A stretch of 10,021 nucleotides of DNA from a virus. Below the pieces are notes generated by a model. The model ran no database searches, was not told the origin of the DNA, and saw nothing but the letters and a program-made list of their open reading frames with translations. Within the stretch, counting starts at the first letter, position 1, and every line of letters starts with the position of its first letter. A program made the position numbers and the translations under genes. The stretch is taken from UHGV virus genome UHGV-1546747; one strand, 5' to 3'. Shown piece after piece: positions 6,046 through 7,983 of the stretch.

Positions 6046-7983
6046 GTGAATCTTAAACGGGCCTGCTCCCTGCTGACGGTGAAATCCTTCAGTGAGGATG
6101 AGCGGGTGATCACCGGGATTGCGTCAACGCCTTCTCCGGATCGGGATGGTGACATCCTGGAGCCGGAGGGGGCGGAGTTCGGCAGTGCGATCCCGTTTCT
6201 CTGGCAGCATGACCATTCCCGCCCGGTGGGGCAGTGTACGGTGCGCCTGGTCAGCGAAGGGCTGGAAATCACGGCAACACTGGCGAAGCCTGTGCCGGAT
6301 ATGCCATCGCAACTGGCAGCCCGACTGGATGAGGCCTGGGCGGCCATTAAGACCGGGCTGGTCAGGGGACTGTCCGTGGGCTTCCGTCCCCATGAATACA
6401 CCTTTCTGGACGGAGGCGGACTGCATTTTCTGCGCTGGGAACTGATGGAGGTGTCTGCCGTCACCGTGCCCGCGAATGCGGAATGCACCATCCGGACCAT
6501 TAAATCTTACGACCGCCAGTTTTCTGCCGCGTCCGGCAACCGGAAACCGGTGGTGAAAATCGCATCTTCTGCCGGCGCTGCGGCACAGTCAACAACCGTT
6601 TTTCATAAGGAAAAGACCATAATGAATATTGGAGAACAGATTAAAAGTTTTGAAAACAAGCGTGCAGCGCTGGCAGCCTCCCTTGAGGAGGTCATGACCA
6701 AAGCCGCAGAGGAAGGGCGCACGCTGGATGTGGAGGAGGAAGAGCATTACGACAACACCGCAGCGGAAATCCGTCAGGTGGATGCGCACCTGAAGCGCCT
6801 GCGTGAACTGGAAGCCGGTAAGGCCGCCACGGCGCAGCCGGTGAAACAGGCCGGTAACGGGAATGTGGCCGCGGTGGCTTCAGCGCCGGTGATCCGTGTG
6901 GAGCAGAAACTGGATAAGGGGATTGGCTTCGCCCGCTTTGCCAAATCACTGGCTGCGGCTAAAGGTGTCCGCTCTGAAGCCCTGGAAGTGGCCCGTCGTC
7001 AGTATCCGGATGACAGTCGTCTGCATCATGTCCTGAAATCGGCAGTGGGCGCGGGGACCACCACGGATCCGCAGTGGGCAGGCAGCCTGTCTGAATATCA
7101 GGAATATGCGCAGGACTTTATTGATTACCTGCGTCCGCAGACCATTATCGGGCGATTTGGTCAGGGCGGGATCCCTGCACTTCGTCAGGTGCCGTTCAAT
7201 ATCCGTGTGCACGCCCAGGTGTCCGGCGGTGCTGCCGGCTGGGTGGGTGAGGGTAAGGCAAAACCCCTGACGAAGTTTGATTTTGAATCCATCACCTTCA
7301 GTCATGCGAAGGTGTCGGCCATTGCGGTACTGACGGAAGAGCTGATCCGTTTTTCCAGTCCGGCAGCTGATGCGCTGGTCCGTAATGCGCTGGCAGAAGC
7401 GGTGGTGGCGCGTCTGGACACAGACTTTGTGGACCCGAAAAAAGCCGCAGTGGCAGATGTCTCCCCGGCGTCCATCACCCATGATGTGAAGGGCAAGGCA
7501 TCAACCGGTAACCCGGATGCGGATGCAGAGGCGGCGTTTGGACAGTTTGTGGCAGCAAACCTGCAGCCCACCGGTGCGGTCTGGCTGATGTCCAGCACCA
7601 ATGCCCTGGCGCTGTCCATGCGTAAAAATGCGCTGGGTCAGAAGGAATACCCGGACATGACCCTGCTGGGGGGGACCTTCCAGGGGCTGCCGGTGATTGT
7701 CTCCCAGTACGTGGGTGACCAGCTGGTGCTGGTGAATGCCCCGGATATTTATCTGGCGGATGACGGCGGCGTGGCGGTGGATATGTCCCGCGAGGCATCA
7801 CTGGAAATGCAGTCTGAGCCGACCGGCGACAGTACCACGCCGTCGCCGGTGGAGCTGGTTTCCATGTTCCAGACAGGCAGTGTGGCCATCCGTGCGGAGC
7901 GCTGGATCAACTGGCGTCGTCGCCGTACCGCGGCGGTGGCGGTGATCACCGGTGTGAACTACGGCAGTGCGTCCGGCGGCTGA
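6046..7983 (+). CDS. Prohead protease (HK97 family, Peptidase S78-like) fused in frame to HK97-fold major capsid protein with delta/scaffold domain
   Basis: 645-aa ORF, GTG start at 6046 with SD CAGGAGG 5 nt upstream. N-terminal ~160 aa (FSEDERVITGIASTPSPDRDGDILEPEGAEF...PFLWQHD...PVG...GLSVGFRP...EVSAVTVPAN) fits prohead protease. From the internal Met at 6622 (MNIGEQIKSFENKRAALAASLEEVMTKAAEEGRTLDVEEEEHYDNTAAEIRQVDAHLKRLRELEAG) it reads as an HK97-type capsid protein with a coiled-coil delta domain. No stop codon between the two parts. Confidence 0.85.
   Translation: MNLKRACSLLTVKSFSEDERVITGIASTPSPDRDGDILEPEGAEFGSAIPFLWQHDHSRPVGQCTVRLVSEGLEITATLAKPVPDMPSQLAARLDEAWAAIKTGLVRGLSVGFRPHEYTFLDGGGLHFLRWELMEVSAVTVPANAECTIRTIKSYDRQFSAASGNRKPVVKIASSAGAAAQSTTVFHKEKTIMNIGEQIKSFENKRAALAASLEEVMTKAAEEGRTLDVEEEEHYDNTAAEIRQVDAHLKRLRELEAGKAATAQPVKQAGNGNVAAVASAPVIRVEQKLDKGIGFARFAKSLAAAKGVRSEALEVARRQYPDDSRLHHVLKSAVGAGTTTDPQWAGSLSEYQEYAQDFIDYLRPQTIIGRFGQGGIPALRQVPFNIRVHAQVSGGAAGWVGEGKAKPLTKFDFESITFSHAKVSAIAVLTEELIRFSSPAADALVRNALAEAVVARLDTDFVDPKKAAVADVSPASITHDVKGKASTGNPDADAEAAFGQFVAANLQPTGAVWLMSSTNALALSMRKNALGQKEYPDMTLLGGTFQGLPVIVSQYVGDQLVLVNAPDIYLADDGGVAVDMSREASLEMQSEPTGDSTTPSPVELVSMFQTGSVAIRAERWINWRRRRTAAVAVITGVNYGSASGG

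Follow-up and report, generated by a model that had tools for sequence, protein, structure and literature searches.

A protease–capsid fusion gene in HK97-like phage head modules carries a conserved candidate internal start for the capsid protein

Does a single open reading frame that joins a prohead protease to the major capsid protein yield one product or two? The question is raised by a locus in the virus genome UHGV-1546747, of which we analyzed 10,021 nucleotides, referred to here as the window. The first-pass annotation had described one ORF of 645 amino acids at 6046–7983 with no stop codon between its two domains, and had suggested that it gives both the full-length protein and the capsid protein alone. 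Reading the frame through 6046–7983 revealed no stop codons between the protease and capsid domains. The extent and the length of the ORF, like every other coordinate in that annotation, proved correct, and the ORF is laid out as follows.

6046–7983, plus strand: protease–capsid fusion ORF with a GTG start, 645 aa, made up of protease, linker, delta domain, and capsid protein
6046–6465, plus strand: S78 (HK97 gp4-like) prohead protease domain, aa 1–140, assigned from Pfam, likeness to gp4, and the AF2 model
6466–6621, plus strand: variable linker, predicted to be disordered and to hold the internal ribosome-binding site, aa 141–192, from AF2 and alignments
6622–6831, plus strand: predicted helices of the delta (scaffolding-like) domain, aa 193–262, from AF2 and a conserved motif
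7201–7950, plus strand: core of the HK97-family capsid domain (Pfam Phage_capsid), aa 386–635

Both domains were recognized by Pfam. Peptidase_S78 (PF04586) matches aa 48–153 with 34.8 bits against a cut-off of 21, and Phage_capsid (PF05065) matches aa 386–635 with 54.1 bits against a cut-off of 24.2 (E 2e-14). The protease domain shares 30% identity with HK97 gp4 (BLASTP, E 2e-8), and the catalytic Ser114 of gp4 aligns with S110 of the fusion, which is invariant in the family. The likewise invariant H55 is probably the catalytic histidine of the S78 domain, an inexact assignment in that H55 lies one residue off the column aligned with His65 of gp4. The AF2 model, computed from a 23-sequence alignment, is informative for the protease, the linker, and the delta helices. 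Expressed as means of 10-residue blocks, pLDDT was 67–86 for the protease (aa 1–140), 22–31 for the linker (aa 141–193, below 50 throughout), and about 65–78 for the helices predicted at 195–222 and 229–262. Two such long helices, as modeled, are typical of a delta domain, and they coincide with the conserved motif MNI(A/G)EQIKSFExKRAAL. In the homologue alignments, no part of the protein varies more than the K/N/T-rich linker. The capsid domain, for which the alignment was shallow, had pLDDT below 50 in the model, and among solved structures the nearest PDB sequence match to the capsid part reached only E 0.001.

The fusion itself is not peculiar to this genome. The protein is 98.8% identical in amino-acid sequence to ORF56 of the Stx phage BP-4795 ("putative major head protein/prohead protease"), and similarly close genes occur in phages 2851, YYZ-2008, and 1717, in many Stx-converting phages, and in lambdoid prophages of E. 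coli O157. ORF56 and its Stx phage equivalents (98–99% amino-acid identity, same gene order) are the same gene without structural difference, and the public records give it as one CDS with no internal start. The match to phrog_617 runs end to end (positions 7–626 of 626, E 8e-260) and spans both domains, so this family, too, consists of fusions. The fusion architecture has therefore long been known, and the remark in the first-pass annotation that such fusions had precedents among HK97-like phages was well founded: besides BP-4795 ORF56 and phrog_617, ORF003 of Pseudomonas phage PAJU2 is annotated as "prohead protease fused capsid protein" and actinophage genes as "major capsid and protease fusion". 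PAJU2 ORF003 is a true homologue with 48% identity. Single genes for protease and capsid are also found in Pseudomonas phage MD8 (gp5, with a ClpP-type protease), in Arthrobacter phage clusters AM, AU, and AN, and in Rhodobacter phage RcC; the MD8 and actinophage fusions have no detectable homology to the present gene or use other protease families. In the literature on the PAJU2, MD8, Arthrobacter, and RcC fusions that we searched, the fusion is described and an internal start is not mentioned.

The first-pass annotation had allowed that resequencing might reveal a stop or frameshift separating two genes, and a fusion could indeed arise artificially when a sequencing error, or decay of a prophage into a pseudogene, removes the stop codon. 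Some relatives are split into two genes, and one locus from an Arsenophonus endosymbiont (L022) is clearly degraded, as this explanation would lead one to expect. However, near-identical DNA occurs in 23% of complete E. coli genomes (1255 of 5426), the same unbroken ORF is found in 1252 E. coli genomes, clustering at 50% identity gives at least 144 groups of fusions, and the inducible phages BP-4795, 2851, YYZ-2008, and PAJU2 carry the fusion. Because the same ORF recurs in this way, we regard an artifact as excluded.

The surrounding genes place the fusion in a lambdoid late region, in the order Ant, spanins, HNH, TerS, TerL, fusion, small ORF, and portal.

3105–3470: HNH endonuclease
3761–4324: TerS
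4321–5982: TerL
8028–8249: small ORF after the fusion gene
8195–9559: portal

The unusual succession of TerL, capsid, and portal had suggested a cf-PICI module. Those elements have separate capsid and protease genes, follow the order capsid–protease–portal–connectors–HNH–terS–terL over 10–18 kb, and lack lysis and tail genes, whereas the window has Ant, spanin, HNH, TerS, TerL, fusion, and portal and matches full lambdoid Stx phages with tails. The gene order, the fused genes, and the matches to tailed Stx phages thus led us to reject a cf-PICI origin.

The candidate second start lies where the linker ends and the delta domain begins.

6607–6611, plus strand: internal Shine-Dalgarno (SD) motif AAGGA, followed by a 10-nt spacer (6612–6621) and the ATG at 6622
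6622–7983, plus strand: nested capsid ORF, in frame, 453 aa, delta domain plus major capsid protein, from ATG 6622 (Met193)

The ATG at 6622–6624 is codon 193 and in frame with the GTG at 6046, and the AAGGA motif lies upstream of it at the distance of about 10 nt that had been reported. The anti-SD energy of the motif is −6.2 kcal/mol, which is equaled at 11.7% of the positions in the ORF, and 5 of 50 other in-frame ATG or GTG codons have an SD as good. Within this single sequence, the internal SD is moderately strong and not beyond chance; its significance derives solely from its conservation across homologues. Around the junction, from −30 to +20, the G+C content is 0.32 compared with the ORF mean of 0.60, which is among the lowest 1.6% of such segments, and the minimum free energy (MFE) is −5.8 compared with −14.4 kcal/mol. 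The low G+C of the junction could in part stem from the Lys/Asn-rich linker. A scan of IMG/VR returned near-identical E. coli alleles only and was used for a check of polymorphism alone: among 68 distinct close E. coli alleles, 6600–6615 and the ATG are free of polymorphism, in contrast to the spacer at 6616–6620, which varies.

Conservation among more distant relatives is far more telling. All 110 homologues with at least 73% identity keep Met193, which directly follows the protein's most variable stretch. An exhaustive HMMER search yielded 12,242 relatives. These were grouped at 50% identity, and of the 150 top-ranking cluster representatives, which we examined, 144 are fusions. The junction residue in the 144 fusion clusters is Met in 128, Val in 13, and Leu in two, and the odd one (P0158) reflects an alignment offset with a Met just downstream. 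For the DNA level, we assembled 110 loci with 41–77% identity from genomes and metagenomes, including Rhizobiales, Hydrocarboniphaga, Proteus, and a Neomarinimicrobiota MAG. The junction codon in the 104 fused loci is ATG in 97 and GTG in seven, and Val is always encoded by GTG. An SD-like motif precedes the junction start by 5–11 nt in nearly all loci, encoded through differing linker residues such as KKG, KE, QEG, PEEG, PKEA, and others; in the cultured phage PAJU2, the junction reads AGGAGG, 8 nt, ATG. The mean anti-SD energy at the junction is −6.9 kcal/mol compared with a background of −2.2 kcal/mol, and all 84 unique junctions fall under the 0.41 percentile for SD energy (median 0.084). 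Of the 84 junctions, 72 have a strict SD core (AGGA, GGAG, or GAGG), compared with 7% at other positions, and across all 84 homologues the segments around the junction have median percentiles of 0.043 for MFE and 0.015 for G+C. These counts overstate the number of independent events because the homologues are phylogenetically related. By sequence comparison, then, the relatives keep an in-frame start inside the ORF together with a ribosome-binding site to serve it.

The conserved site could conceivably be an unused ancestral relic in a fusion-only polyprotein, with each capsid subunit bringing its own protease. A single ORF with a strong upstream SD would suit such an arrangement, as would the single CDS in all public annotations, and a 1:1 stoichiometry is conceivable: by our estimate, a T=7 prohead would then enclose about 13 MDa of protein, which is dense but feasible. 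A relic lying in the protein's most variable region would, however, be expected to erode, whereas all 104 fused loci, some as little as 41% identical, keep ATG or GTG, the SD outlasts changes of the linker residues that encode it, and the low predicted structure is also kept. The persistence of the site through deep divergence in a fast-evolving linker thus speaks against a vestigial site, and we consider fusion-only expression unlikely.

Relatives in which protease and capsid are not fused show what the junction codon is in their case. In two capsid-only proteins (P0254 and P0266), Met1 aligns to residue 193 of the query, and in three others (P0202, P0228, and P0258) the start aligns to residues 194–196. 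The first-pass annotation had taken ATG 6622 to begin exactly at the capsid N-terminus; the capsid-only Met1 aligned to residue 193 and the helices predicted from 195 bear this out, so that, to judge from the alignments, MNIGEQIK... is the N-terminus of the capsid protein. Among the split relatives, the capsid gene of Moraxella phage Mcat7 and of loci L028, L146, and L195 starts at the same junction codon. Both L146 and L195 have an in-frame TAA 3–4 codons before the capsid start that overlaps the SD; the L146 junction, with TAA inside the SD, reads ctcTAAGGAaacaccGTG, and that of L195 reads AAGAGGTAAatccagATG. In L028 and L029, the protease is read in a different frame, which terminates after the SD but ahead of the ATG, and in Mcat7 the genes overlap by ATGA, with AGGAG in front. 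HK97 itself provides the classical arrangement: its gp4/gp5 junction reads ...TTA GGT AAA TAA tt ATG, so that the SD of gp5 lies inside the last codons of gp4. From this junction, the fusion can be understood as gp4 plus gp5 minus the stop, with the capsid start kept.

The linker composition offers another explanation. The SD-like motif and the A-rich tract might be by-products of a Lys/Gly/Asn-rich linker, or might slow the ribosome as an intragenic SD-type pause, giving the protease time to fold ahead of the delta domain. In favor of this, the linker is rich in K, N, and T with predicted disorder, and the codons for K-G and K-E necessarily give AAGG(A). Neither version explains the invariant start codon at a fixed distance of 5–11 nt or why Met is replaced only by Val encoded as GTG. 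Moreover, some clades make the SD from other residues (PQEG, PEEG, and PKEA, giving AGGAGG), and the split relatives demonstrably need the junction site. We find such a by-product or pause more improbable still than expression of the fusion alone.

Because the start codon, the SD, and the weak structure are conserved and the split and capsid-only relatives share the codon, we infer, with good support, internal initiation at 6622. A search of the available records and the open literature found no description of an internal start in this fusion family, and for the family's proteins the searchable literature yielded neither N-terminal sequences nor mass-spectrometric or ribosome-profiling data.

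How much of each product would be made is a separate matter. The first-pass annotation had cast the fusion as the minority and the capsid protein alone as the abundant species. Its internal start has strong comparative support, but the proposed abundances do not follow, as the features of the two sites conflict.

6035–6040, plus strand: Shine-Dalgarno AGGAGG serving the full-length start, 5 nt ahead of GTG 6046
6007–6033, plus strand: terminator-like hairpin with a T-run, lying after the terL stop (5982) and ahead of the fusion gene's ribosome-binding site

The upstream AGGAGG has an anti-SD duplex energy of −10.3 kcal/mol compared with −6.2 kcal/mol for the internal motif, while its start codon is GTG and the predicted accessibility is 0.30 for the upstream site and 0.57 for the internal one. 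Most relatives in other Enterobacterales have an ATG preceded by GGAGG as their upstream start, and in several soil and freshwater clades the SD is stronger at the junction than upstream. The ratio of fusion to capsid alone is therefore not deducible, since SD strength points one way and codon and accessibility the other, and the clades differ. The fusion need not be the minor species, because the upstream site is not obviously weaker.

Taken together, these observations make it probable that the locus encodes a nested in-frame pair, the fusion from 6046 and the capsid protein alone from 6622, whose products would co-assemble. Ribosomes starting at GTG 6046 would produce the 645-aa polyprotein of S78 protease, flexible linker, delta domain, and capsid protein, and ribosomes recruited by AAGGA at 6607–6611 to ATG 6622 would produce the 453-aa capsid protein with its delta domain. 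The two kinds of subunit would co-assemble through their identical delta and capsid parts, and because these parts are identical, each fusion subunit might take one protease inside the procapsid. Once the procapsid has assembled, the protease would be expected to release itself and to clip away the delta domains. HK97, lambda C/Nu3, Mu I/Z, and herpesvirus UL26/UL26.5 are the models from which we propose that the internal site is used, that the subunits co-assemble, and that they are cleaved. In evolutionary terms, the arrangement corresponds to gp4 and gp5 of HK97 with the intervening stop lost and the capsid SD and start retained.

HK97 resembles the present locus in its S78 protease, its Pfam Phage_capsid domain, the capsid SD in the last protease codons, and a terminator-like hairpin upstream. 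It differs in that TAA separates gp4 from gp5; no stop lies between the domains here, so the protease tether is covalent. The free gp4 protease of HK97 is reportedly targeted by its C-terminal tail, and the covalent tether could stand in for this tail. HK97 gp5 gave no BLASTP alignment with the capsid part of the fusion, and the gene order is also unlike that of HK97, with the portal gene downstream of the fusion. In lambda C/Nu3, Mu I/Z, and herpesvirus UL26/UL26.5, a long protease product co-assembles with a short, C-terminally identical product of an internal start. Co-assembly brings the protease into the procapsid, and in these systems both products are experimentally established. Their nested product is a separate scaffolding protein, whereas that of the present gene would be the delta-domain capsid protein itself. 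The fusion gene thus falls outside the C/Nu3 family because its nested ORF encodes the capsid protein, even though it may work alike.

What appears to be new, as far as the sequences tell, is a pair of nested assembly genes whose nested product is the capsid protein itself. We also lean, with less assurance than for the nested pair, toward a wider reading for phylum-spanning HK97-like head modules, which comprise at least 144 clusters at 50% identity and occur in 23% of complete E. coli genomes: the nested start might set the protease dosage, and tethered and free delivery might toggle by one stop codon or a change of frame around the same capsid start. If so, this would be a third general route of protease encapsidation, beside the free tail of HK97 and the protease–scaffold fusion of lambda, P2, and herpesviruses. 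Protease–scaffold fusions are also the subject of a CBASS paper. If both products are made, the number of proteases per procapsid would be tunable within one ORF by the ratio of two initiation sites, and the annotation of thousands of phage and prophage genomes, with one CDS often called only "major capsid protein" or "prohead protease", would be corrected. The naturally fused and split relatives form a comparative series of tethered versus free protease delivery. The practical stakes are modest; nested in-frame assembly genes are familiar, and specialists would expect the result, as a nested start within the fusion is a sensible and unsurprising variation on a known phage trick.

The hairpin ahead of the fusion gene at 6007–6033 has a 7-pair stem followed by TTTTATTTTC, and its role as a terminator is putative. 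The same hairpin element, "gcgggttttttcgtttc", is also found ahead of the fusion gene in Enterobacterales homologues, and HK97 has an annotated putative terminator at the equivalent spot before gp4.

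In the window, the genes between 3105 and 9559 are arranged in the order HNH, TerS, TerL, protease-capsid fusion, small ORF, and portal. This order differs from that of HK97 (TerL, portal, protease, capsid) in that the portal gene lies 3' of the capsid gene. The same arrangement, with the portal downstream of the capsid, is found both in the Pseudomonas phage PAJU2, which carries a homologous fusion, and in the Moraxella phage Mcat7, in which the protease and capsid are encoded by separate genes. Three small elements flank or overlap the fusion gene and its neighbors:

6007-6033: terminator-like hairpin (GGACCGC...GCGGTTT) with a T-run, between the terL stop and the SD of the fusion gene
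6044-6049: minimal out-of-frame ORF, ATG-TGA ("start-stop"), overlapping the GTG start of the fusion gene at 6046
8028-8249: small ORF of 73 aa (phrog_829, function unknown), between the capsid and portal genes

The 73-aa ORF overlaps the portal gene, which starts at 8195, by 55 nt and is kept in the Stx phage BP-4795 as ORF57. Small ORFs also occupy the equivalent capsid-portal interval in PAJU2 and Mcat7.

The hairpin is located within the late operon and could serve for transcription attenuation, mRNA stabilization, or as a processing site. The same hairpin and T-run element precedes the fusion gene in the Enterobacterales homologues, and a putative terminator is annotated at the equivalent position before gp4, the free protease gene of HK97. 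The full-length start codon is GTG in the E. coli lineage versus ATG in other Enterobacterales. Speculatively, the start-stop might compete with the full-length start, thereby lowering the amount of the fusion product. It lies 3 nt downstream of AGGAGG.

Among the homologous loci, three with the protease as a separate gene (L028, L029, and L195) share a conserved basic tail at the protease end, ...LDAPARDRAKPFVIRSIKR(T)*, which is not present in the fused forms. By analogy with the C-terminus of HK97 gp4, this tail is a candidate capsid-targeting peptide. The homologous gene of an Arsenophonus endosymbiont of Aleurodicus (L022) contains many frameshifts and stops and is therefore a decaying prophage copy, which nevertheless retains AAAAAGGAAAgtcagATG at the junction between protease and capsid.

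Larger apparent fusions also occur among the homologous proteins. In two metagenomic representatives of about 1090 aa (P0123 and P0132, from two 50%-identity clusters), the protease-capsid fusion is preceded by an N-terminal extension of ~440 aa containing an AAA ATPase domain, which may be either a genuine triple fusion or a gene-calling artefact. Two further database proteins, each from one contig only, join the fusion to TerL (P0001, 1079 aa, E. coli) or to the portal (P0003, 784 aa), and both are probably frameshift artefacts of sequencing or assembly.
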